The position numbers and the translations under genes were made by a program. The notes beneath the pieces are model-generated. The model made no database searches. It was not told the origin of the DNA and saw only the letters and a program-made list of their open reading frames with translations. A stretch of DNA of 32,000 nt from Okeania sp. (GTDB taxonomy: Bacteria > Cyanobacteriota > Cyanobacteriia > Cyanobacteriales > Microcoleaceae), in NCBI RefSeq assembly GCF_035285525.1, contig NZ_JAYKGW010000006.1:1-32000 (forward strand). Reading direction: 5' to 3'. This document shows positions 4,800 through 25,264 of the stretch, piece after piece (position 1 is the first letter of the stretch; each line of letters begins with the position of its first letter).

Positions 4800-5135
4800 A
4801 TGAGACAACGTAAGTTCTTTCCTGATGAACCTGTTGAGCCAAATTATTTTGTCGGCAGAAAATCTGAACTACAGACAATTTTTAATAAAGTTAATCGTCA
4901 TGGTGATGTTGCTATTTATGGCAGTTCTGGCATAGGTAAAACATCTTTGCTTAGATATATACAATCTACCAACTTTTGGAAAGAAAAAAAGTTAGATTTT
5001 TCAGAAGTTTTTATTGTTTATAAAAACTGCGACAGTTTGGTTACATCAAGCAATTTTTGGCAAGAAGTTTTAACAGACTTAAAAAATAAAGTTAAAGACG
5101 ATGAAAATTTACAGCAAAAAATTGATGAGGTATGA
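4800..5135 (+). pseudogene. N-terminal fragment (111 codons) of a T1-type P-loop NTPase
   Basis: FFPDEPVEPNYFVGRKSEL...YGSSGIGKTSLL aligns with residues 1-110 of 16400-17749. Homology stops at about 5128, before Walker B. Preceded by the extended -10 TGATATAAT (4747-4755). Confidence 0.7.
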
Positions 5136-5663: not shown

Positions 5664-6917
5664 ATGAGTGTTTTCACGAGACTAGAATCTCAAGTTAGAA
5701 GCTATTGTCGATTGTTTCCTACAATTTTCACTAAGGCAGTAGGAGATAAATTAATTGATGAGAATGGAAACATTTACATTGACTTCTTGTCTGGTGCTGG
5801 CGCACTCAACTACGGACATAATAATCCTAAACTCAAAAAGCGTCTCCTGGAATACATTGAATCAGATGCTATTACCCACAGCCTCGATATGTTTACTTCT
5901 GCTAAACAGCAGTTCCTAGAAAAGTTTGAGGAGTTTATTCTCAAGCCACGAGAATTAGACTATAAGGTAATGTTTACAGGCCCGACAGGAACTAACTCTG
6001 CTGAAGCGGCTTTGAAATTAGCCCGTAAAGCTACTGGACGCAAAACAGTCATCTGTTTCACTAAAGGCTACCATGGACATACTTTAGGGGCACTTGCTGT
6101 TACACCTAACCCAGCCTATCAAAAGGATGTGGGTGTTAACCTTGATAATGTTTTAACTTTTCCCTTCGAGGATAAAAATGCCACCACGGACAATGGTCTC
6201 GATAAATTAGAAAAATTACTTGATGACTTAATTTCTAATCAGGACAAACCAGCAGCCATTATCTTAGAAACTGTTCAATCTGAGGGGGGAATTAATGTTG
6301 CTAGCGTTTCTTGGCTCAAACGCCTAGCCCAAATTGCTCAACAGCGAGAAATTTTACTAATTGTTGATGATATCAAAGTAGGTTGTGGTCGCACTGGTCC
6401 TTTCTTTAGTTTTGAACGGGCAGGAATTAAACCCGATATCGTTTGTCTGGCTAAATCTTTAAGTGCTTATGGAAACCCAATGGCTGTGGTACTAATTAGA
6501 CCAGATATAGACTGCTGGAAACCTGGGGAACATAGTGGTACTTTCCGTGGTAACAATCTTGCTTTTGTCACGGCTACTGCTGCTATTGAGGAGTATTGGC
6601 AAACAGATGCTTTTGCTCAAGAAATAGCAGATAAAGGTGAGGTGATGCAGAAACGACTCCAAGAAATGATCGCTAAATACCCAGAATTAGGCGGCGAACA
6701 CCGAGGATTAGGATTGATTCAAGGAATCGCTTGCCAACAAACGGGATTAGCCAAAAAAGTTAGCCAGGAAGCTTTCCAACGAGGCTTAATCTTTGAACCA
6801 ATGGGAGTTAACAAAGAAGTGATTAATCTGCAGTCTACACTTACCATTGATATTGACACCTTAAACCAAGGATTAGATATTTTAGATAAAAGTATTGCTG
6901 CAGCTATTTCAAATTGA
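5664..6917 (+). CDS. Class-III PLP aminotransferase, diaminobutyrate-2-oxoglutarate transaminase (EctB/PvdH-like), paralog 1
   Basis: 417 aa with LESQVRSYCRLFP, LNYGHNNP, GPTGTNSAEAA, DDIKVGCGRTG and LAKSLSAYG (putative PLP lysine). Paralog of 8016-9311. Confidence 0.8.
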   Translation: MSVFTRLESQVRSYCRLFPTIFTKAVGDKLIDENGNIYIDFLSGAGALNYGHNNPKLKKRLLEYIESDAITHSLDMFTSAKQQFLEKFEEFILKPRELDYKVMFTGPTGTNSAEAALKLARKATGRKTVICFTKGYHGHTLGALAVTPNPAYQKDVGVNLDNVLTFPFEDKNATTDNGLDKLEKLLDDLISNQDKPAAIILETVQSEGGINVASVSWLKRLAQIAQQREILLIVDDIKVGCGRTGPFFSFERAGIKPDIVCLAKSLSAYGNPMAVVLIRPDIDCWKPGEHSGTFRGNNLAFVTATAAIEEYWQTDAFAQEIADKGEVMQKRLQEMIAKYPELGGEHRGLGLIQGIACQQTGLAKKVSQEAFQRGLIFEPMGVNKEVINLQSTLTIDIDTLNQGLDILDKSIAAAISN

Positions 6918-6931
6918 CTCACTTAAACCTG

Positions 6932-7074
6932 TTATATCATGTCCGGATGAACAGGTATAAATAAATTAGGGAAAAGTCAGGAGTCGTAGGGGCAAACGGC
7001 CGTTTGCCCCTACAGGAATCAGCAGGGAAAAGGAGGAAGTTTTTTTGATCACTAATTATCCGCACATGATATTA
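6932..7074. mobile_element. MITE-like element filling the convergent intergenic gap
   Basis: Inverted ends ttatatcatgtccggatga (6932-6950) and ttatccgcacatgatat (7056-7072). Internal perfect palindrome gtaggggcaaacggccgtttgcccctac. The right end is the same motif as in the 18088-18705 array units. Confidence 0.55.
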
Positions 7075-8019
7075 AGTTTTTGCTACTTCTAAAAGTTCTG
7101 CCAACACTTTACCATGAAATTCCCAAGGAAAAGTCTCAATGGTAAAACCAGGCAACCCTGTATCTCCATCAATTGCTGCTTCCTCATTAACCAGAGTAGT
7201 TAAAATCTGTTTATCCATCTCTAAAGTTAATCCCTTAGTTAAGGATTCTTTCCAGTCAGGACGCAGCAAAGCTAGGGCAATCAGTAATCCCATGGCTCCC
7301 CAGTTTGAGACACCGCATATTATCGGGTAATTGCAAGGAATATTACAGGCAATTATTTCTCCACGCTTAATCGTTTTGGCGATTAGCTCTGGAGAAAGGG
7401 TTGCCATACCTAACTCATTGCCCAGATCGCCAATACCGATAGAAATAATTTCACTGAGAGTAAATAACAGATGCAAAGGAGCAGTATGAGCAGTAATATC
7501 CTTCCCACTTACATTGCGGACAGTACCATCAGCACTTGGGCCTGCTCTTTCAATGGCAATAACATGAGAGACAGGGGGAGCAGCACTTTTCCATAACTTA
7601 ATAATCTCAGCAACAGAAGCATCTTCTCTACTCACCGCATCTACAGGAACCACATCATAAGCAACATTAGGAGATATTCCGGCTGCCCTCGCTGCCGTTT
7701 CCACAGACTTCAGACATAAAGGATCTGTAACTAGACGCACCGGAATCCCTACTCTTTCCAGTCCTGCTGCTAAATGGGCGCAACCAATGGGACCATCATT
7801 TTCTGCTGCTGGAGGAGTTCCATGGGGAATAAAAAAGCCTGTCATAATGGCTACATGGGGGGATGGATGTTCGGCGATGGAACGAGCAGCACCAAGTAAT
7901 CCCCCCTTAGCAGCTTCCACAAGTGGCTGGATACCATGACCGATATCTCGTCCACAGATGTTTTCAATTTTTTCAATCTGGGTTAAGACTTCTGGAGAAT
8001 TTTCTGAAAGAATATTCAT
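7072..8019 (-). CDS. DUF4392 / D-glutamate-cyclase-like protein
   Basis: 315 aa with TGFFIPHGTPPAAENDGPIG, IERAGPSADG and GIGDLGNELGMA, recalled as DUF4392-like. Its ATG overlaps the stop of 8016-9311 as ATGA. Confidence 0.55.
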   Translation of the reverse strand: MNILSENSPEVLTQIEKIENICGRDIGHGIQPLVEAAKGGLLGAARSIAEHPSPHVAIMTGFFIPHGTPPAAENDGPIGCAHLAAGLERVGIPVRLVTDPLCLKSVETAARAAGISPNVAYDVVPVDAVSREDASVAEIIKLWKSAAPPVSHVIAIERAGPSADGTVRNVSGKDITAHTAPLHLLFTLSEIISIGIGDLGNELGMATLSPELIAKTIKRGEIIACNIPCNYPIICGVSNWGAMGLLIALALLRPDWKESLTKGLTLEMDKQILTTLVNEEAAIDGDTGLPGFTIETFPWEFHGKVLAELLEVAKT

Positions 8020-9311
8020 TTAGCTGCTGCTCCTGAAACGACTAATTTTTGAGAAGTTGTGGGCTGCATAACTTCTTGAACAGTATCTTCTAAAATAGTC
8101 AGCCCCTTATCTAATATTTCTTCGGAAACGGTTAAAGGCGGAAGACATCGAATTACTTGACCTTTGGCCCCGGCTGTTTCCATAATTAGCCCATTGGCAA
8201 AAGCTTTGCGAATAATTCGATCGGCTATATTACCATCTTGGCAGTCTAATCCCTGAATCATACCCCTACCTCTTACAGAAAAACCTGCTTCCTGATAGTT
8301 TTTGGCCATTTTTTCTAATCGGGATTTCATAATTGTTCCTTTATGTTTGACAGCAGAGGACAAACTGTCATCTTGCCAGTAGATATCCAAGGCAGCCTTA
8401 GCAGTAACAAAGGCTAAGTTAGGTCCTCTGAATGTGCCACTGTGTTGACCAGGTTTCCATCTATCTAATTCTGGTTTTATTAATACCAATGAGAAAGGCA
8501 AACCAAAACCACTCAAGGATTTGGAAAGGGTGACAATATCAGGAGAAATGCCAACTTCTTCAAAACTAAAAAAGGAACCTGTCCGTCCGCATCCCACTTG
8601 AATGTCATCAGCAATTAATAGAACATTATGTTGGCGACAGACTTTTTCCAGGGAGCGCAACCACTCGAAACTAGCCACATTAACTCCACCTGCTCCCTGA
8701 ATTGTTTCTACGATTACCGCTGCTGGCAGTGATACACCACTACCTACGTCAGAAAGCACTTTGTCCAAATACTCTGTCGTATCAATATTTGACCCCAAAT
8801 ACCCATGATATGGTATAAAGGTGACGCCAGTGGTAGAGATTCCGGCTGCTGCTCGCTGGGAAGCTTTGGCTGTTGTTGCTAAAGAACCCAGAGTTACGCC
8901 ATGATAGCCATTGGAAAAGGCAATCACCGTTTCCTGTCCAGTTATCTGACGAGCTAATTTGAGAGAAGCTTCTACAGCATTAGTTCCTGTAGGTCCGGGA
9001 AACTGAATTTTGTAATTTAATTCCCTAGGTTTGAGGATAATCTCTGCAAATGCTTGGATAAATTCTTCTTTGGCCACGGTGGCTAGATCGAGTCCGTGTA
9101 TTATACCATCAGACGCTAAATAATCTAATAGTCTTTGTTTAATTTGTGGGTTATTATGTCCATAATTAAGAGTCCCCACACCACAGAGAAAGTCAAGGTA
9201 CTGACGACCTTCTCGATCTTTGATAAATGCTCCTTGTGCTGTCTTAAATACCGTGGGAAATAAACGGCAGTAACTTCGCACATTGGATTCTAATTGATTG
9301 AAAATTTCCAT
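8016..9311 (-). CDS. Class-III PLP aminotransferase, diaminobutyrate-2-oxoglutarate transaminase-like, paralog 2
   Basis: 431 aa with LESNVRSYCRLFP, LNYGHNNP, GPTGTNAVEAS, DDIQVGCGRTG and LSKSLSGFG. More than half of the N-terminal residues are identical to paralog 1 by eye. Confidence 0.8.
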   Translation of the reverse strand: MEIFNQLESNVRSYCRLFPTVFKTAQGAFIKDREGRQYLDFLCGVGTLNYGHNNPQIKQRLLDYLASDGIIHGLDLATVAKEEFIQAFAEIILKPRELNYKIQFPGPTGTNAVEASLKLARQITGQETVIAFSNGYHGVTLGSLATTAKASQRAAAGISTTGVTFIPYHGYLGSNIDTTEYLDKVLSDVGSGVSLPAAVIVETIQGAGGVNVASFEWLRSLEKVCRQHNVLLIADDIQVGCGRTGSFFSFEEVGISPDIVTLSKSLSGFGLPFSLVLIKPELDRWKPGQHSGTFRGPNLAFVTAKAALDIYWQDDSLSSAVKHKGTIMKSRLEKMAKNYQEAGFSVRGRGMIQGLDCQDGNIADRIIRKAFANGLIMETAGAKGQVIRCLPPLTVSEEILDKGLTILEDTVQEVMQPTTSQKLVVSGAAAK

Positions 9312-9389
9312 AAGATTATAATTGTTTTTTTATGGCATCTTGTCCTCAAAATGCCCAAAGCATCTGTTATATCAATAAAATTTGCAATT

Positions 9390-9481
9390 AGGACTTACGC
9401 CAAGGTATCATATATATATTTAAAAAACTACCAGTGCAATAGTTTTGAATGCTATATACATATGGTCTCTGCGTAAGTCCT
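9390..9481. mobile_element. GGACTTACGC-type hairpin MITE between the TauD-like gene and aminotransferase 2
   Basis: aggacttacgcc ... ctgcgtaagtcct. Interior is related to the 31749-31840 copy (aaaaaactaccagtgcaatagttttgaatgctatata). Confidence 0.6.
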
Positions 9482-9497
9482 AGCAATCTAGAATCAT

Positions 9498-17997: not shown

Positions 17998-18087
17998 GGA
18001 AATCGTAAATTAAGTTGCCAGATTTTACAATAGGGGTTGGCTCTTCAAATTTTTTGGTGTTTGGGTTTGGAGACTAAACTCCTACAG

Positions 18088-18705
18088 TTTTTTCTCAGTA
18101 ATTATCCGGACATGATATAATTTAATATTTAGTTTCTCAAGCTCCTCAAGAAGGCAGAAGGTAGAGGGTAGAAGGCAGAAGGAAAAGAAAGCTTCAAAGG
18201 GAAAAGGCTTTTTTCTCAGTAATTATCCGGACATGATATAATTTAATATTTAGTTTCTCAAGCTCCTCAAGAAGGCAGAAGGAAAAGAAAGCTTCAAAGG
18301 GAAAAGGCTTTTTTCTCAGTAATTATCCGGACATGATATAATTTAATATTTAGGGTTTCTTAAAATCATCAGGAAGGTAGAGGGTAGAAGGCAGAAGGAA
18401 AAGAAAGCTTCAAAGGGAAAAGGCTTTTTTCTCAGTAATTATCCGGACATGATATAATTTAATATTTAGGGTTTCTTAAAATCCTCAAGAAGCCAGAAGG
18501 CAGAAGGAAAAGAAAGCTTCAAAGGGAAAAGGTTTTTTTCTCAGTAATTATCCGGACATGATATAATTCAATATTTAGGGTTTCTTAAAATCCTCAATAA
18601 GCCAGAAGGCAGCTATGCTGAAGGCAGAAGGAAAAAAAGCTTTAAAGGGAAAAGACTTTTTTCTCAGTAATTATCCGGACATGATATAATTCAATATTGA
18701 GGGCT
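18088..18705 (+). repeat. Tandem array: five full units of 100-123 bp plus a truncated sixth
   Basis: The motif ctcagtaattatccggacatgatataat begins at 18094, 18215, 18315, 18431, 18540 and 18663. Unit lengths differ through gain or loss of (a/g)aggcagaagg / gtagaggg sub-repeats. Each unit ends in aaagcttcaaagggaaaaggctttttt. Confidence 0.9.
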
Positions 18706-19010
18706 TGCTGATTAAATCTACAGCAAATTTCGGACCAGTGATTTACAGGGTAAATTGTGGAAATATTGTATTGCCAGCATCTTGCCCCCTTATGTGTACC
18801 TCACGAGCAACGGAAAGCGCTGTAAAACTATTAATAGACAAAGCTTAAAGGCTTTTTACGGTAACAAAAAGTGTCAAAAAACTACTAAATTAACCTGGAA
18901 AATAGTTTCTTAAAATCCTGAAGTATAACCATCTTTTTGTTTTTGATTTCCTGTTCCTTTAAACCTAGAATTTTGTACCTCATCAATATGAGAATTACCG
19001 AAGAATTCAA

Positions 19011-19057
19011 TGATTAAATGATTAAATGATTAAATGATTAAATGATTAAATGATTAG
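19011..19057. repeat. 8-bp microsatellite (TGATTAAA) x 5.75
   Basis: tgattaaa repeated head-to-tail from 19011. Stop codons in all frames. Confidence 0.9.
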
Positions 19058-19336
19058 GGTTTTGAAGCCTCCCCTTTAAAAGGGAAAAAATCAATTTTTT
19101 CCTTTGATTCAATCCTCTTCCTTTTAGGGATAAGTAATTATAAATTATCCATTATTGAATATACTTTTGCAAATTACAAATAATTCCTTATACCAAATTA
19201 ATTGTATAAATTTATAAGCCAAATTAATTACAATTTCTACTATAAATCTCCAATCTTATCGATAAATTATCAATTATTTTTCTCTGTTCCCTCTCTCAAC
19301 TAGGAAATTAATTTGGCACGACTACTTAAATTTAGT

Positions 19337-19612
19337 TAGGGTTGGCGCTCAAAAGTCTGATGGTTAAGGTAGGAAGTATGTAGGGACGTCCTTATGCAAC
19401 TTCCTGACAAAGTTAGGATAAACGGGGAGTTGTAGAAGAAGTGGTTATTAATAAATCCCCCTTATTGTTTCTGTCATAATTATCCTAAAATCCTCACTTT
19501 TTCCGCTCCATAAATCCAAAAGCTGGTACTTTTACGGTTCCCGATAAATCAGCCCGTAAAATCCTGCAAACGTTTATCTGTCAATGCTTTTATGTTTAAT
19601 CAGCCAGCCCTA
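19337..19612. mobile_element. MITE-like element with TAGGGTTGGCGCT...AGCCAGCCCTA ends
   Basis: Imperfect terminal inverted repeat. The right portion (tacggttcccga(t/a)aaatc(a/g)gc...gtttatctgt(c/a)aa...ttaatcagccagcccta) is shared with 26520-26781. Partial end copies at 18711-18730 and 20205-20225. Confidence 0.5.
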
Positions 19613-20986
19613 GTTATTTTGATGAAAAATTATTATAATATTAGTTTATTTGCCCAATTTTATAACCATAAAACTGATAGTAATCATACATGATTTGTCA
19701 TAGAAAAATGCATATATTTGTTCTATTAACCCAAACATTAATGGGATTTATCAATGCAACTTCTACAAGAAAATTTGAGATTGCTATATGAGAATAAAAA
19801 TTTAGAAAAGAAATAGTTCCTTTGTATAAAACCTAAAATAAAATTGTTTCGAGTTTGATTATTTAAATAACAATAGTTATAAATTATAATAAAGCTTCGA
19901 CTTAGTTGACAAGCTGCATTATAACGCAATATAATATAGTGGTTATCTCAACCAAGAATATAATGAAATTTGTCAAACCTAAAACATTGACTTAATCAAA
20001 TAATAACGTATAATGTTTGGATAAGCATACTATGAAACAGGGTGTACTCAGCCGGACAAAAAATATATTTGACAACTTATTTAGCCAAAAACTATGGTAC
20101 GATTGTCATTATAATTTAGGAAACTGCTGTATTTCCGAAAAAATCTTAACTCTAGGGAATTTGGGATATGGCCTTTCTAAGTTCATCGCTAAATTAATTA
20201 CAGCTTGCTGATTAAATCTAAAAGTATTACCAAATAAAGGTTTTAGCCTTTTTAAGTTCTCAAAAAGTGCAAGTTTTTCGGTAGCTCTGGTACGGTTCCC
20301 GAACAATCAAAAAGGAGCGCATTTTGGGCGCATAGTTGGGCAAAAAAAAATACACTCCCTATCCTTTCTATCTCCCCATCCCCCGATCTCCCCGTTTCCC
20401 CATCTCCTTAAAAAGATTTTCTCAGTCAACCTTAATTACATTTTGACCAAAAAATAAGGTCTCAAGCTTCCCTTTTCCAAGGGAGGAAAAATATTCGATT
20501 CAGCATTTCCAGTCTGTGGGTTCGGTTAGAGGTACTGTTAACTAATAACCAGAAATGATTCCTAGTTTACTGTGCCGTCTCTTAACTAAATAATCGGAAA
20601 CAATTTTAATCACGCTATAATCATGGCGGAATAACAGTTTTAAGGACAATCAGCGATACCCAATAAATGGGTAAAGTTGAGTGCATTTTTATCTACTTTT
20701 TTGCGTTTTTGACAAATCATTGCATACTACGATAAATACAGAGTATCAGGGTGTTTGCTATTAGGGTGTTTCGTAAAAATAAGTATTTCGTTTTTGAGGT
20801 AGTTTATTAAGAATTATCAAATATGGGTGCTGTTAAAAAATAATCTGTAGTAAACTGACGCACCTCAAAATCTAGGTTGGGCTTCGATTCCTTAACCCAA
20901 CTAAACCTTACTGATGTTGGGTTTAGTTTCATGGTTTGCTTTGCTGCGCAATGAAGTTCACAAACAACCCAACCTAGATATATTTA

Positions 20987-21249
20987 TCCATTTTAGATGT
21001 GTCAGTCCAGCAAGTTTCTAGGGTGCATTTTTGCGCTTCGCAAAGCTTTCCTATGGAATGCTGCGCAAACGTTTTTCATGTCGCGTTTCATATCAGCGAC
21101 AGTCGAAAAGCGAAACCGCGAAGAGCCGACATGAAAAGACAACTTAAATTAAGACTAAGAAAGGAATTTAGCAATCCGTCGTCACGCACCGCTTTAGATG
21201 TGTTAGTCCACTACGTCATATTGCTCCATTTTTAGATGTGTTAGTCCAG
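20987..21249 (+). repeat. Direct repeats TCCATTTT(T)AGATGTGT(C/T)AGTCCAG flanking a relatively GC-rich insert, just upstream of T2
   Basis: DR1 at 20987-21010 and DR3 at 21225-21249 (24/25 nt, one mismatch plus one extra T). A partial DR2, ttagatgtgttagtcca, is at 21194-21210. Confidence 0.65.
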
Positions 21250-21340
21250 TAACTTGAATTTTTGCTGCACTTTACTTCATCTTTGGTCTTTTACTGATAG
21301 TATTTTTTATTTCCTAGAAATTTTTTTACCTTTAATCAAC

Positions 21341-23302
21341 ATGAACTATAATCAACTAATCAATCCTTACGTTATGAACTATAACCAACTAATCAATCCT
21401 TACATTTTTGGTAAGCCAATTTATGAAAAAGAAAAGTTATTTGGTAGAGAAAATACGATTCAAGAAATTCAAAATAATCTTGAAAATAATGTCAAAATAA
21501 CTTTATTGCACGTCCAAAGACGTATTGGTAAAACTTCATTAATAACTTGTTTACCTCAGTTTTTCACTGAAGAAGAAAATAACTATAAATTTGTTACTTT
21601 TTCATTTCAGGGTCATAAAGATAAACCAATTCCGGAAATTCTCAATTATCTGGCTGATGATATTGCTGCTACTATTGATGGACTTCCGAAACAAGTCAGG
21701 GAAGAAGCTAATAGTTCATACAACTTTTTTCAGATTTTTTTACCCAGGATTATTAATGAATATTTATCAGGTAAAACTCTGGTTCTTCTCCTAGATGAAT
21801 TTGATGTTTTAGAAGAAGATAGAACCATATCCGATCGGGGAAAAAAGTTATTTGAAGAGTTAGAAAAACTTGTTAAGCAAGAAGAAAAACTATTTGCTAT
21901 TCTGGTTTTTGGTAGACCTTTAAATGATGTTATTTATCTAGAAGAATTTTTACAAAAAAAAGAGCAAAAGACTGTAGAAGTTGGTTTATTGGATAAGGAG
22001 AGTACAGAAAATTTGATTGTGCAGCCAGCTTTGGGAATGCTAAGATATCAACCAGATGCAATTGATGCGATTTGGCAATTATCCGCAGGTCATCCTTCTA
22101 TAACACAATTATTATGCTTTAATATTTTCAAATATTGTCGAGAAAAAAAAATAAGAAAGGTAACAGATACTCATGTTTCCTTAATTGTAAATCAAGCGAT
22201 CGCAGAGGGCGAAGCATTATTAAATAGTTTTCTAGAACCTTTAGAAGATGATGAAAAACTATTTTTTCGGGCAGTAGCAGAAATTCAAGAAAGTTCTGGA
22301 AAAAATCAACTGCAAACTATAATACGAAGTTGGCAGTCTATAGGAAAACGTTTGGTTGAAGAATATGGCTTTTTAGCAGAAAAAGAAGATCAAACAGGTT
22401 ATCAAATTAAAGTTGAATTTGTTCAGCTCTGGTTGATAAAGTTCCATCCTTTATCTCAAGAAGAAAAGTTGCAAATGCAGAAATTTCCGGAGATAAATAA
22501 TAACAATTATGAGCCTAAATCAGCAGTAAATAATCATGCTCAAAAACCTAATCAAATTTATGTTTTCTTTTCTTTGTTGTTAGTAGTTGGAATTTTTTCT
22601 GTTGTTATTATCCAATCATTATCTGGTTTCAAAAGACCGGCTATTTGCAATGATTTACTGAAGCAAATAAATAGCAAAATATCATCAGGAACTTTAGCAG
22701 AAAGATTGGCAGTTATCAATAAATTTAGAGAGAAGAAAAATTTGGATAAAAAATGTTCTAATTCTGATGAAATTTATGGAAATTTTTATGAGTTACTTTT
22801 TATGTATGGGCAGGAAGAAATTGAGAATAAAAAATTTGAGGTAGGGATAAAAAATTTATGTTCTATTAGTGATGAATATAGCGAAAAAACTCAAGAATAT
22901 ATCAATACGTTAATTGGCTCGGGTAGTAGTTTGTCTAGAGAAGAAAAAAGAAAGTTTATTGATCAAATTATTCAACAAAATCAAGCAGAAAATAAATGCT
23001 CTGCTTATTCATTTGATAACGAAGCAAATAAAAATAATTTGTTTCAGCAACTACAACAAATAGATAAGTTTTATAATGAACAAGGCAAACAGCAAAGTAG
23101 TAACTATAATTATTCAGAAGCTGTCACATCATACTGTAAAATATCAAAGTATTATTCTCAAATTCCTCAGATTAAACAACAATTAAGAGATTTGTATAAT
23201 GATGAATTTGGGGGACTTATATTGCGTAAAGAAAAAGAGGAAATGATTAATACACTCAAGAAAATAGGTGAAAATAATTGTCCAGCATTTCCAGATGTTT
23301 AA
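21341..23302 (+). CDS. T2: membrane-anchored STAND/ATPase_2-like P-loop NTPase with a C-terminal six-Cys extracytoplasmic domain, intact copy
   Basis: The track ORF starts at TTG 21254. The first ATG is at 21341 and a duplicated ATG at 21374. Motifs: NPYIFGKPI...LFGRE, Walker A-like HVQRRIGKTSL, Walker B LVLLLDEFD, LSAGHPSITQLLC, TM IYVFFSLLLVVGIFSVVII, then a domain of about 220 aa with 6 Cys. Confidence 0.8.
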   Translation: MNYNQLINPYVMNYNQLINPYIFGKPIYEKEKLFGRENTIQEIQNNLENNVKITLLHVQRRIGKTSLITCLPQFFTEEENNYKFVTFSFQGHKDKPIPEILNYLADDIAATIDGLPKQVREEANSSYNFFQIFLPRIINEYLSGKTLVLLLDEFDVLEEDRTISDRGKKLFEELEKLVKQEEKLFAILVFGRPLNDVIYLEEFLQKKEQKTVEVGLLDKESTENLIVQPALGMLRYQPDAIDAIWQLSAGHPSITQLLCFNIFKYCREKKIRKVTDTHVSLIVNQAIAEGEALLNSFLEPLEDDEKLFFRAVAEIQESSGKNQLQTIIRSWQSIGKRLVEEYGFLAEKEDQTGYQIKVEFVQLWLIKFHPLSQEEKLQMQKFPEINNNNYEPKSAVNNHAQKPNQIYVFFSLLLVVGIFSVVIIQSLSGFKRPAICNDLLKQINSKISSGTLAERLAVINKFREKKNLDKKCSNSDEIYGNFYELLFMYGQEEIENKKFEVGIKNLCSISDEYSEKTQEYINTLIGSGSSLSREEKRKFIDQIIQQNQAENKCSAYSFDNEANKNNLFQQLQQIDKFYNEQGKQQSSNYNYSEAVTSYCKISKYYSQIPQIKQQLRDLYNDEFGGLILRKEKEEMINTLKKIGENNCPAFPDV

Positions 23303-23326: not shown

Positions 23327-23498
23327 GGTTTGGTCTCCAAATCCATTGGTGCTTGGGTTTGGAGACCAAACCCCTACAGTTTTTTCTCACAAATGATTTC
23401 ATATTACCTTAGCTAAAGTTTCCTACTGTGGTTTACTTTATTTTAGGGGGGTTTGGAGACCAAACCCCTACAGTTTTTTCTCACAAATGATTTCATAC
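23327..23498. repeat. Two direct copies of GGTTTGGAGACCAAACCCCTACAGTTTTTTCTCACAAATGATTTCATA plus an inverted partial copy, between convergent T2 and amt
   Basis: Copies at 23355-23403 and 23448-23498. GGTTTGG-AGA-CCAAACC is itself a hairpin. tttggtctccaaa (23329-23341) is its reverse complement. A related sequence lies at 18062-18095. Confidence 0.6.
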
Positions 23499-23599: not shown

Positions 23600-25264
23600 C
23601 TACTTTAATGTGGTAACTTCATCTGTGGAATGTGGATTTTGAGAATTTACCCAAAAACCATCACTACCTTCTATTTCCTCTCTAGGTGTAACTCTGATTC
23701 CTTGTCTAGCGATCATAGTAATTTTATCCAACAAATTTCCTTTGTTGGATAATTTTCTCTTTTTCCCAATAATCATGTCAAAACTGTACAAAATTACACC
23801 AATGATTATCCAAACTATCCAACTCAAAACAAAAATGAAACCGAAAATAATTAACCATCCTAATATTTGAGAACCTAGTTGACCTAAAATATTATAACTA
23901 TCTTTATACGGTATACTATCTCTGAGACTCCAGAATACAGCTATAGTACCCCAACCTCCACAAAAAAGATGAACCGGAATAGCTCCTACTGGATCGTCAA
24001 TTTTCAGAGACCTTAAAAATATTTTACCTGCAACCACAAGAACTCCACTAACAGCTCCTATAAGAATCGCAATAGGAACATCAATATAACCAGAACAACC
24101 AGTGACTCCAACTAAACCCCCTAAAATACCATTAATCAGTGATGTAAGTTCAGGTTTTCCGCTTTCTGGGTTATTTTCAAATACTTGAGACCATAGACTG
24201 GTTACAGGAGTTGCTAATATAGCAACTATACCACCTGTGGCTGCGGACATGATAGTTGTAATGATGGTATGACCAACTTCTTCCAGCTCAGTAGTTGAAC
24301 CACCATTAAAACCCAACCAACCCAACCAAAGTATAAAACATCCAAGGGTAGCAGATGTTAAGTTGCTGGAGTCAGTAAAATAGTTTTGATTCTCAAATTT
24401 CCGAGGTAAGGGTTCCCGTGGTACACGACTATCTAAATCTTCTTGTGGATCGTACCCAAAGCGATTCCATCTGGGTTTCAGTATTATAGCGCCAACTAAA
24501 GCAGCGGTTCCTCCCACAGTATGGACAACAGTAGCTCCAGCAAAATCTACAAAATTAAATAGTTGGCTTAACCAACCATATTTTGACCATACCCAATGAC
24601 CAATAATAGGATATAGAAATGCTACTAAGATAAAACTAAACCAGAAAAATCCCCAAAACCTAATTCTTTCTGCTACAGAGCCAGAAACAATAGTAGCTGC
24701 AGTGGCAGCAAATGCTAATTGAAAGAAAAACAGAGATGTGATCGAACGTCTGGGAAACTGACTTTGCAAACAGGAAAATCCTGTCTCAGGAAAACTTAGG
24801 GGATTTTCATCTTTTTTTGGTAATAGAATAAATTGTGATTTTTCCTCCAACTCATTATATTCGGTTGTGGGAGAAAAATGCCCCCAATAAGTTACTATGG
24901 GTGGGCTATTTTCATTGACATCTTCTCCACAAGAATAGTTTGAGTTATCGCCAAACATCACACCAAAACCAAACGTCCAGAAAGCGATCGCTGCTACACA
25001 AAAAACTATTAAATTTTTTGCCAATACATTAATAGAGTTTTCTTTGCGACACAAACCATCTTCTAGGAGAGCAAAACCAGAATTCATAAAGAATACTAAA
25101 GCAGCAGCTAATACCAGCCAGATATTGTCTACGGCGGCAAAATCATTAATATTATCATTAGCTAAAGCTGTTTTGCCAGTTATTAAAACTATGATAGTTG
25201 CTAAAAATAAACAAAGATACCTACAATGTGAAAACCAATTTTTATCTGTCGATTTGCCTAACAT
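23600..25264 (-). CDS. amt: Ammonium transporter (Amt/MEP family)
   Basis: 554 aa, multi-TM, with NSGFALLEDGLCRKENSINVLAKN, FAGATVVHTVGGTAAL and GAIPVHLFCGGWG. Confidence 0.9.
   Translation of the reverse strand: MLGKSTDKNWFSHCRYLCLFLATIIVLITGKTALANDNINDFAAVDNIWLVLAAALVFFMNSGFALLEDGLCRKENSINVLAKNLIVFCVAAIAFWTFGFGVMFGDNSNYSCGEDVNENSPPIVTYWGHFSPTTEYNELEEKSQFILLPKKDENPLSFPETGFSCLQSQFPRRSITSLFFFQLAFAATAATIVSGSVAERIRFWGFFWFSFILVAFLYPIIGHWVWSKYGWLSQLFNFVDFAGATVVHTVGGTAALVGAIILKPRWNRFGYDPQEDLDSRVPREPLPRKFENQNYFTDSSNLTSATLGCFILWLGWLGFNGGSTTELEEVGHTIITTIMSAATGGIVAILATPVTSLWSQVFENNPESGKPELTSLINGILGGLVGVTGCSGYIDVPIAILIGAVSGVLVVAGKIFLRSLKIDDPVGAIPVHLFCGGWGTIAVFWSLRDSIPYKDSYNILGQLGSQILGWLIIFGFIFVLSWIVWIIIGVILYSFDMIIGKKRKLSNKGNLLDKITMIARQGIRVTPREEIEGSDGFWVNSQNPHSTDEVTTLK

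Follow-up and report, generated by a model that had tools for sequence, protein, structure and literature searches.

What a predicted signalling ATPase does with a cysteine-rich domain on the far side of a membrane is the question raised by T2, a gene in a 32,000-nucleotide stretch of Okeania sp. DNA (RefSeq assembly GCF_035285525.1, contig NZ_JAYKGW010000006.1, positions 1 to 32,000; this whole stretch is called the window below). The T2 product joins an N-terminal nucleoside triphosphatase (NTPase) to a C-terminal outer domain with six cysteines through a single hydrophobic helix. A preliminary description of the window had identified these three parts, and our analysis recovered all of them, with an outer region of 229 amino acids (aa) where ~220 had been estimated. 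That description did not include what we regard as the most informative fact about T2, namely that it lies tail to tail with the gene for an ammonium transporter (Amt) and that this pairing is conserved. The arrangement suggests an undescribed outside-membrane partner or sensor for ammonium uptake, and because of it the finding is more interesting than was stated earlier. We consider it an evenly balanced proposition that T2 is an inner-membrane signalling NTPase with the tail-to-tail Amt as its functional partner.

In the window, the two genes converge across a gap of 297 bp. Twelve loci were found through the outer domain, namely those of the window, Okeania SIO1I7, SIO3I5, and KiyG1, Dapis, Trichodesmium MAG_R01, Calothrix MO_167.B42, Fischerella PCC 9431, a 9.3-Mb JGI genome, and three metagenome contigs. 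In all 12, a convergent Amt gene directly followed the Cys-domain gene, at a distance of -4 to ~300 bp; many of the gaps were 7–40 bp, and the value of -4 bp was seen in locus L008. The genes beyond the pair differed among the 12 loci. For a scan in the reverse direction, an Amt alignment was compared with one genome per species, which yielded the 80 closest cyanobacterial Amt loci, and the domain was detected by iterating an outer-domain hidden Markov model (HMM) on the open reading frames of these loci. Fifty of these Amts share at least ~41% identity with that of the window, and 31 of them had the Cys domain as a neighbour; the 30 more distant ones, including those of Nostoc and Pseudanabaena, all lacked it (Fisher p = 2e-9, uncorrected for phylogeny). 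Unicellular genera (Microcystis, Crocosphaera, and Xenococcus) were among the positives. The paired Amt is an ordinary and well-conserved transporter (75–78% identical across genera). In the window it ends with an ordinary C-terminal region, and Amt and T2 are separate genes with no covalent fusion.

Related Amts without the Cys domain often had a signalling gene as their convergent neighbour (REC-PP2C, CheA-like kinase, or REC-GAF histidine kinase), and this Amt clade seems to be generally paired with signalling genes. Such neighbours were noted at loci L041, L049, L050, L052, L055, L058, L064, and L066 and also at L037, L043, and L045. The recurrent one is a response-regulator/PP2C (SpoIIE) protein ending in LQYVRTWHPNFQFEDDLSILQIDFS; elsewhere the position is held by a CheA-like or REC-GAF histidine kinase.

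The outer domain was characterized in an alignment of 31 sequences, comprising 30 full-length homologs (43–57% identical) and the paralog within the window; about 45 full-length homologs were found in this identity range. T2 has exactly six Cys behind the helix, at residues 436, 472, 507, 553, 599, and 647. All 31 members likewise have exactly six there, and these invariant positions account for 6 of the 14 invariant columns. The Cys are spaced 35–48 residues apart, with no CxxC-type cluster and no co-conserved histidines. The 2.5 internal repeats that had been noted proved to be a fair description, since the block from C3 to C4 matches that from C5 to C6 in full (profile–profile probability 98.9%, E = 1.9e-17, 59 columns) and the block from C1 to C2 matches the others by its second half only (22–23 columns, E = 1e-4 to 3e-3). 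Because the Cys counts are always even and the duplicated unit has exactly two Cys, one disulfide per unit fits the data, and the bonds are probably C1–C2, C3–C4, and C5–C6.

AlphaFold2 returned a confident, all-helical model of the region behind the helix (11 helices from an alignment of 20 sequences; predicted local distance difference test score (pLDDT) 88.4, predicted template-modelling score (pTM) 0.81). The Cys domain alone had no match to a known family in Pfam or NCBIfam, and a PDB profile search gave nothing below E = 0.7. With Foldseek, the best PDB match had E = 0.069 (3u4t_B), the top template-modelling scores were ~0.40 (BamD chains), and viral structures gave no match. Assignment to a TPR/Sel1-like family was considered and rejected, as the sequence models were silent and Foldseek yielded just generic TPR- or BamD-like helical repeats. 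An exhaustive HMMER profile search that covered 1.84 billion representative proteins matched the domain to 15 clusters only. We propose that it represents a new extracytoplasmic domain family, the location being a prediction.

The weaker matches of the outer-domain search, found in Calothrix, Hapalosiphon/Fischerella, and Spirulina, were shorter proteins that carry a ~130-aa version of the domain, with four invariant Cys, behind a membrane helix. Since this four-Cys form corresponds to block R1 plus a single unit of the R2/R3 type (blocks as in Table 1), the six-Cys domain of T2 is an internally duplicated form of a portable module. The short form occurs in many cyanobacteria, and the part that precedes the helix and the Cys domain varies. 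It is a Ser/Thr kinase in two four-Cys proteins (Pkinase, E = 1e-33 in P0130 and E = 5.5e-33 in P0133), an AAA_35 ATPase in Crocosphaera and Microcystis (E ~1e-34), an Hpt domain in Microcystis (E = 7e-15), and a set of pentapeptide repeats in Xenococcaceae (E = 9e-40); small domains take this place in Nostocales, where separate AAA_35 genes precede. Each of the 25 tails scored has 6, 4, or 2 Cys behind the helix, and the tail usually ends in C-P-[AV] (C-Q in Microcystis, NNCPAFPDV in T2). We propose to define the family by a membrane helix followed by a helical tail of 105–240 aa with 2, 4, or 6 conserved Cys and by a gene position directly beside Amt, usually in convergent orientation, a definition that covers T2. 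A protein homolog search with the alignment of four-Cys short forms returned 0 matches. Two loci were found to carry more than one such gene: a metagenome contig has two tandem kinase-helix-Cys-domain genes before Amt (locus L014, 4554–8905), and a Microcystis genome has a second Cys-domain open reading frame 4.4 kb from the Amt-adjacent one (locus L039, 189–2093).

The predicted membrane helix of T2, IYVFFSLLLVVGIFSVVII, has a Kyte–Doolittle 19-mer mean of 2.92, compared with 1.02 for the next best segment elsewhere in the protein. All 31 family members have one such helix (means of 1.9–3.1), which is their sole segment above 1.3. Because some Ser/Thr kinases carry this outer domain too, beyond a membrane helix and in the fashion of receptor kinases, we infer an N-in/C-out, sensor-type arrangement in which the NTPase is cytoplasmic and the C-terminal domain periplasmic; the thylakoid lumen is a less likely location of the outer domain. 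The positive-inside rule was dropped as a guide to the orientation of T2, given that lysine and arginine are similar in number on both sides. This indecisive charge bias, and the fact that invariant Cys can serve as metal ligands, would also suit a hydrophobic segment that does not span the membrane, or a cytoplasmic tail, with the six Cys binding metal or acting as redox thiols inside the cell. We find this scarcely credible. The Cys are widely spaced and lack a CxxC-type cluster or conserved His, the 19-residue segment is as hydrophobic as membrane-spanning helices typically are, the kinase-helix-domain layout mirrors receptor kinases, and export of a folded 400-aa ATPase N-terminal to the helix is implausible.

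The NTPase half was modelled with AlphaFold2 from an alignment of 39 sequences. In Foldseek searches, the model matched the Walker-type ATPase of P. abyssi (2qen, PABY2304; E = 2.6e-10) as well as archaeal and eukaryotic Orc1/Cdc6 and CED-4, with E-values of 1e-8 to 1e-10 across these groups. Behind the NTPase core, the model shows a helical bundle with the GxP motif and, next, a helix/beta-hairpin module; T2 thus has the helical GxP module and the winged helix that mark STAND proteins. The STAND consensus for Walker B, hhhhD[DE], has its counterpart in LVLLLDEFD. The Walker A motif had been described as lacking its usual glycines, which is true of the first one only: in VQRRIGKT, the G-K-T is kept and the first Gly of the STAND consensus GxxxxGK[ST] is replaced by Val. 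Since Q-R-R-x-G is invariant in the 39 sequences, even in distant TPR-fused relatives (26–38% identical), its conservation argues for a functional, non-canonical P-loop.

All Pfam matches of the NTPase were sub-threshold. AAA_22 was the best of them (25.0 bits against a cut-off of 27.0); the STAND models nSTAND1 (22.0 against 27.1) and NPHP3_N (22.2 against 24.8) also fell short, as did nSTAND6 (18.1 against 27.7) and AAA_16 (19.5 against 32.6). NCBIfam gave nothing useful for this half, and phmmer found 0 matches to the NTPase part in PDB. A PDB profile search with the NTPase alignment was dominated by the TPR repeats of distant fused relatives and contained a weak P-loop match to 2qen. Furthermore, Pfam detected no N-terminal effector or adaptor domain, and just ~20–30 residues precede the NTPase core. 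Because T2 falls short of the Pfam cut-offs and the N-terminal effector is absent, T2 is not placed in any curated STAND family on its sequence; judged from the modelled fold, its N-terminal half is an AAA+/STAND-like switch ATPase. The earlier label of a STAND-like protein therefore applies loosely: it agrees with the GxP module, the winged helix, and the CED-4/Orc matches, and does not extend to the Pfam models or to an N-terminal effector. The same NTPase module occurs elsewhere alone (~370 aa), fused to TPR, and fused to GUN4.

The AAA_22 match, two bits below its cut-off, is one of the points that would favour a different role for T2, that of an ExeA-like assembly or quality-control factor that helps to insert, trimerise, localise, or turn over Amt. 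ExeA has this layout too, its cytoplasmic ATPase being joined by one membrane helix to a domain in the periplasm (PMC4098917), and T2 is tightly paired with one membrane protein. The characterized layout of ExeA, and the occurrence of AAA_35, helix, and Cys domain in one protein in Crocosphaera and Microcystis, also mean that it was too strong to call the topology of T2 unusual. Nevertheless, we rate an assembly role as highly improbable. The outer domain is also fused to Ser/Thr kinases, Hpt, and pentapeptide modules, that is, to signalling and not to chaperone parts; the winged helix and GxP module resemble those of switch-type ATPases; and most cyanobacterial Amts do without the Cys domain.

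The two halves of T2 have had different histories. The family contains two deeply divergent types of outer domain, which are ~30% identical to each other. We compared T2 of the window with P0002–P0008 and P0003/P0006. Its NTPase was closest (69–73%) to proteins with the other outer-domain type, and its outer domain was closest (55–56%) to those of Dapis and Okeania KiyG1, whose NTPases are 53–59% identical. Among the numbered proteins, those nearest in the NTPase gave 73% for that half and 30% for the outer domain, and those nearest in the outer domain gave 55% for that half and 52–58% for the NTPase. As the nearest relatives of the NTPase and of the outer domain disagree, the two have been shuffled, which indicates recombination at or near the membrane helix. 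The outer domain also diverges faster, its identity to the window protein being 33% as against 64% for the NTPase.

A similar division was seen in one part of Amt, the extended loop between transmembrane helices 2 and 3 (TM2-TM3). The loop of the window Amt is 67–73% identical to those of partners of the same outer-domain type and 53–63% identical to those of the other type, whereas the rest of Amt does not separate the types (76–79% for the same type and 68–80% for the other). AmtB has 11 helices and its N-terminus outside, and on this topology we take the TM2-TM3 loop of the window Amt to be periplasmic. Over nine T2/Amt pairs, the outer domain co-varied with the loop in a Mantel test (r = 0.90, p = 2e-4), and it still did so in partial Mantel tests that controlled for the rest of Amt (r = 0.89, p = 3e-4) or for the NTPase (r = 0.86, p = 6e-5). 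About 1.4 kb separates the 3' end of T2 from the part of Amt that codes for the loop, and because the intervening Amt sequence does not co-vary, a single recombination tract fails to explain the pattern.

Several observations weigh against a partnership of T2 with Amt. The nine pairs fall into ~3 clusters, so that few independent events underlie their co-variation. Over all 36 pairs, the loop-specific partial r is 0.25, compared with r = 0.85 for the whole Amt, which is the expectation of long co-inheritance alone and does not necessarily reflect loop contact; loop-specific co-variation was therefore dropped as a general rule and kept for the T2 subfamily. In the linked Amts of Microcystis, Crocosphaera, and Xenococcus, the loop is short and lacks Cys, and as these Amts lie outside the T2/Nostocales group, loop contact cannot be universal. 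The same short loops ruled out the two-Cys extended loop as a universal mark of linked Amts; it is limited to the closest ones, namely those of the T2 family, Nostocales forms, Spirulina, kinase forms, and metagenome relatives. The T2/Amt pair is also not an operon, since convergent genes are not co-transcribed. As for T2 itself, a P-loop whose first Gly is replaced may have weak or zero hydrolysis, Pfam recognises no output domain, and the K/R counts, being alike on both helix flanks across the family, leave the positive-inside rule indecisive.

Some of these points would agree with T2 being a free-standing periplasmic ligand or redox sensor that makes no contact with Amt, the neighbourhood then reflecting shared regulation (e.g., transcriptional interference at the 3' ends) or a common role in nitrogen metabolism. 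The domain tracks the whole Amt and not the loop over the 36 pairs, the linked Amts of the three unicellular genera have no extended Cys loop, and the convergent, near-abutting 3' ends would permit antisense or terminator coupling. On the other hand, co-variation in the T2 subfamily remains loop-specific after control for the rest of Amt, and the pairing has outlived repeated exchanges both of its cytoplasmic part and of every gene around it. Because it survives the replacement of both module and flanks, shared regulation alone is a poor explanation, and we consider a sensor independent of Amt unlikely.

If T2 is instead an inner-membrane signalling NTPase partnered with Amt, its outer domain would dock on the periplasmic face of the Amt trimer, particularly on the extended TM2-TM3 loop; alternatively, it might sense ammonium next to that face. 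A change in the occupancy or conformation of Amt would then be transmitted by the membrane helix to the winged helix and the NTPase, where it would alter the nucleotide state of T2, its self-association, and its binding to the soluble paralogous ATPases of the upstream genes (T1 and, in relatives, X; see below). In other cyanobacteria, the same outer module would feed a Ser/Thr kinase, an Hpt domain, or an AAA_35 ATPase. Control of Amt activity and nitrogen-status signalling are plausible outputs. A more specific form of this proposal, which we regard as possible rather than probable, is that the Cys-stapled domain is a dedicated periplasmic ligand of this Amt clade and that Amt serves as an ammonium-binding co-receptor, whose state would be read on the outer side and relayed by one helix to interchangeable cytoplasmic modules (STAND-like and AAA_35 NTPases, Ser/Thr kinases, and Hpt).

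T2 is also the last member of a conserved T1-(X)-T2 array of ATPase genes, in which T1 holds an orthologous position in the Okeania, Dapis, and Trichodesmium loci. The full array, seen in Okeania SIO3I5 and Trichodesmium MAG_R01 (L002 and L005), consists of six consecutive STAND-like ATPase paralogs on one strand (~409, 965, 370, 428, 415, and 650 aa) and ends at the convergent Amt; the window keeps T1 and T2 only. In Okeania, Dapis, and Trichodesmium MAG_R01, T1 and T2 are separated by X, an ATPase of ~415 aa that is missing in the window. Its place (17750–21254) is occupied by 3.5 kb of repeat-rich DNA without long open reading frames, including 8-bp arrays at 17788–17867 and 19005–19056 and a 109–225-bp tandem array at 18088–18703.

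As many as six STAND-like ATPase paralogs in tandem are what would be expected if T2 belonged to a STAND-type conflict or defence array, a kind that is common in filamentous cyanobacteria, in which the outer domain would be an envelope or phage-contact sensor or an anchor and Amt would be incidental. The faster divergence of the outer domain, its two deep types shuffled against the NTPase, and the duplication and decay of the locus are in line with such a role, and conflict systems have been described whose components combine a membrane helix with Sel1, PASTA, or OmpA domains, including cell-wall-binding domains placed behind the helix (PMC7159879). However, neither T2 nor T1 had a PADLOC match, the array paralogs gave just weak matches at the P-loop level, and T2 has no recognisable effector domain. 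Moreover, the pairing with Amt, an ordinary and well-conserved transporter, extends to unicellular genera and to kinase or Hpt modules in place of STAND ATPases. We regard a defence role as very unlikely.

The protein encoded at 14924–15712 had been described as a paralog of T2. It is akin to T2 in sequence and keeps all six Cys and the NNCPAFPDI end; it has, however, lost the NTPase part, and this truncated remnant is embedded in a duplicate of the whole locus that has decayed. Its open reading frame looks intact and begins with a 63-bp tandem duplication (14764–14894). The decayed copy comprises a T1 fragment (12529–12972, + strand; 75% identical to Okeania T1), frameshifted X/T2-like NTPase fragments (12975–13752, + strand), and N-terminal fragments of Amt (13958–14119 and 15769–15837, both on the - strand). 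In a tblastn comparison with the Okeania block, the window thus proved to contain what is left of additional T1-(X)-T2/Amt blocks. An isolated 111-aa open reading frame, 56% identical to the N-terminus of Okeania T1, was found at 4800–5135 (tblastn match 4800–5132), 7 kb upstream of the other fragments, and is one more stray piece of the ATPase array.

The start of T2 carries a small duplication of its own. The reading frame spans 21254–23302 (+ strand), and an ATG at 21341 gives a protein of 653 aa. The duplication covers the first 11 codons and creates two equivalent in-frame starts, and the homologs have a single copy of the duplicated motif. T2 is a 100% match to the database protein P0001, and because that form is 642 aa long, a translation start at 21374 seems equally possible. 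Coordinates of all these features are collected in Table 1.

Table 1. Features of T2, its convergent Amt, and related sequences in the window
Feature	Coordinates	Strand	Details
T2 gene: NTPase, one membrane helix, six-Cys outer domain	21341..23302	+	653 aa; alternative start at 21374 gives 642 aa
Tandem duplication at the start of T2, 33 bp (MNYNQLINPYV / MNYNQLINPYI)	21341..21406	+	31/33 identical; Tandem Repeats Finder (TRF) period 33, 1.9 copies
Predicted cytoplasmic NTPase, helical, and winged-helix module	21398..22450	+	Residues ~20-370; AlphaFold2 pLDDT 89.2, pTM 0.86
Deviant Walker A, HVQRRIGKTS	21509..21538	+	Residues 57-66; nearly invariant in the family
Walker B, LVLLLDEFD	21779..21805	+	Residues 147-155; D-E-F-D invariant
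GxP motif, SAGHPS, in the helical module after the NTPase core	22082..22099	+	G250, H251, and P252 nearly invariant; helical in the AlphaFold2 model
Linker, N/Q/K-rich, poorly conserved	22451..22555	+	Residues 371-405; mean identity 42%, many indels; pLDDT < 50
Single predicted membrane helix	22556..22612	+	Residues 406-424
Outer domain, all-helical, six invariant Cys	22613..23299	+	229 aa; blocks R1 22622-22777, R2 22835-23020, R3 23111-23299
Terminator-like hairpin between T2 and Amt	23447..23469	+	10-bp stem with 6 GC pairs, then a T run; consensus match only
Ammonium transporter Amt, convergent to T2	23600..25264	-	554 aa; Pfam Ammonium_transp E = 1.9e-90
Amt TM2-TM3 loop, extended, two Cys	24734..24946	-	Amt residues 107-177; periplasmic by AmtB homology
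T1, soluble AAA_16/STAND-like ATPase with canonical Walker A, upstream of T2	16400..17749	+	Pfam AAA_16 3e-09, NB-ARC 3.3e-05
Truncated paralog: linker, membrane helix, six-Cys domain	14765..15712	+	ATG at 14924; 54% identical over the domain; no NTPase part
Decayed locus copy	12529..14119		tblastn with the Okeania block; open reading frame fragments

The closest relatives of the window as a whole are Trichodesmium, Okeania, and Dapis (Microcoleaceae). Its G+C content runs from 28 to 44%, and Rfam gave no match over its whole length. Between a UbiA (heme O synthase-like) gene (230–1225) and the ATPase array lies a block (5664–12174) that encodes two class-III aminotransferases, a D-glutamate-cyclase-like protein, a TauD-family dioxygenase, an FAA-hydrolase-family protein, and a methyltransferase. 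Because UbiA in Dapis is just ~1 kb (two small genes) from the array, this block looks like an inserted small-molecule pathway. At 26993–30496, a 1167-aa multidomain protein combines PPC pre-peptidase domains, a papain-family C1 peptidase, and a lectin-like domain with three Kre9/KNH-like Ig domains, one NOMO-like domain, and one CBM48-like domain; several of these Pfam families have eukaryote-derived names, and the mix is unusual for a cyanobacterium. A PD-(D/E)XK-family transposase (PDDEXK_2, E = 5.6e-51; 30732–31598) at the right edge of the window fits a rearranged, repeat-rich region.

To our knowledge, the regulation of Amts acts from the cytoplasmic side (PII/GlnK) or through Amt–transducer fusions; we are aware neither of a protein reported to partner an Amt on the periplasmic side nor of a STAND-type switch that a transporter drives across a membrane. 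A literature search, which included a 2023 review of prokaryotic Amts, found neither a periplasmic Amt partner nor this gene pairing. If the co-receptor form of our proposal is right, cyanobacteria, including the globally important N2-fixers Trichodesmium and Crocosphaera, would have a PII-independent route of ammonium signalling. Ammonium uptake and sensing govern nitrogen fixation and bloom behaviour in Trichodesmium, Crocosphaera, and Microcystis, and the fact that an Amt clade is paired, across genera, with a module predicted to face outward and carried on ATPases or kinases points to an unstudied layer of control. T2 would also be an example of a STAND-like switch with its presumed sensor across the membrane, and it would define a new domain family predicted to be extracytoplasmic.

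Parts of this arrangement can be recognised in known systems. PknB of the PASTA type is a receptor Ser/Thr kinase with a C-terminal extracellular sensor, and P0130 and P0133 share its order of kinase, membrane helix, and outer domain; they differ from it in that the outer part is a Cys-stapled helical module and not PASTA, and T2 has an NTPase instead of the kinase. The cysteine-rich Sel1-repeat proteins of Helicobacter have one disulfide per repeat. T2 resembles TPR, Sel1, and BamD proteins in having all-helical repeats that are predicted to be extracytoplasmic, with a Cys pair per unit. Unlike TPR and Sel1 repeats of 34–44 aa, however, its unit spans ~80–95 aa, with the Cys 36–48 residues apart and no sequence match. 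Transporters and sensors are known to form co-sensing pairs, as in LysP-CadC and DctA-DcuS, and in CadC a single membrane helix leads to a periplasmic domain that contains a functional disulfide.

Among ATPases, those of the ExeA type are usually filed under AAA_22, for which the score of T2 is sub-threshold. Aeromonas ExeA, of the type II secretion system, is an AAA ATPase in the cytoplasm with a single membrane helix and a periplasmic peptidoglycan-binding domain (PMC4098917), and T2 shares the layout and topology of ExeA/GspA by prediction. In contrast, the outer domain of T2 is all-helical and Cys-stapled and has no PG_binding match, its GxP module and winged helix are like those of Orc/Cdc6 and STAND proteins, and its partner is Amt and not ExeB plus a secretin, its neighbours being ATPase paralogs and Amt with no secretion genes. 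With STAND and Orc1-Cdc6 proteins, among them CED-4/Apaf-1 and the nSTAND families (PMC7159879), T2 has in common an NTPase core, a helical GxP module, a winged helix, a C-terminal helical repeat domain, and a place among paralogous ATPase genes in filamentous cyanobacteria. It differs from STAND proteins in that the repeat domain lies behind the predicted membrane helix and not in the compartment of the NTPase, which would place the presumed sensor outside; in addition, T2 lacks an N-terminal effector, the first Walker A glycine, and a PADLOC match.

The nearest parallel in proposed logic is found in the sensor Amts, such as Ks-Amt5, an Amt-histidine kinase (PMC5764959), and Sd-Amt1, an Amt-HAMP-diguanylate cyclase (PMC11152129). 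There, as we propose for T2, Amt supplies an ammonium-specific site and a signalling module reads it out. Amt and T2 differ from these fusions in being separate polypeptides encoded on opposite strands, their proposed contact would be periplasmic, and the transducer would be an NTPase.

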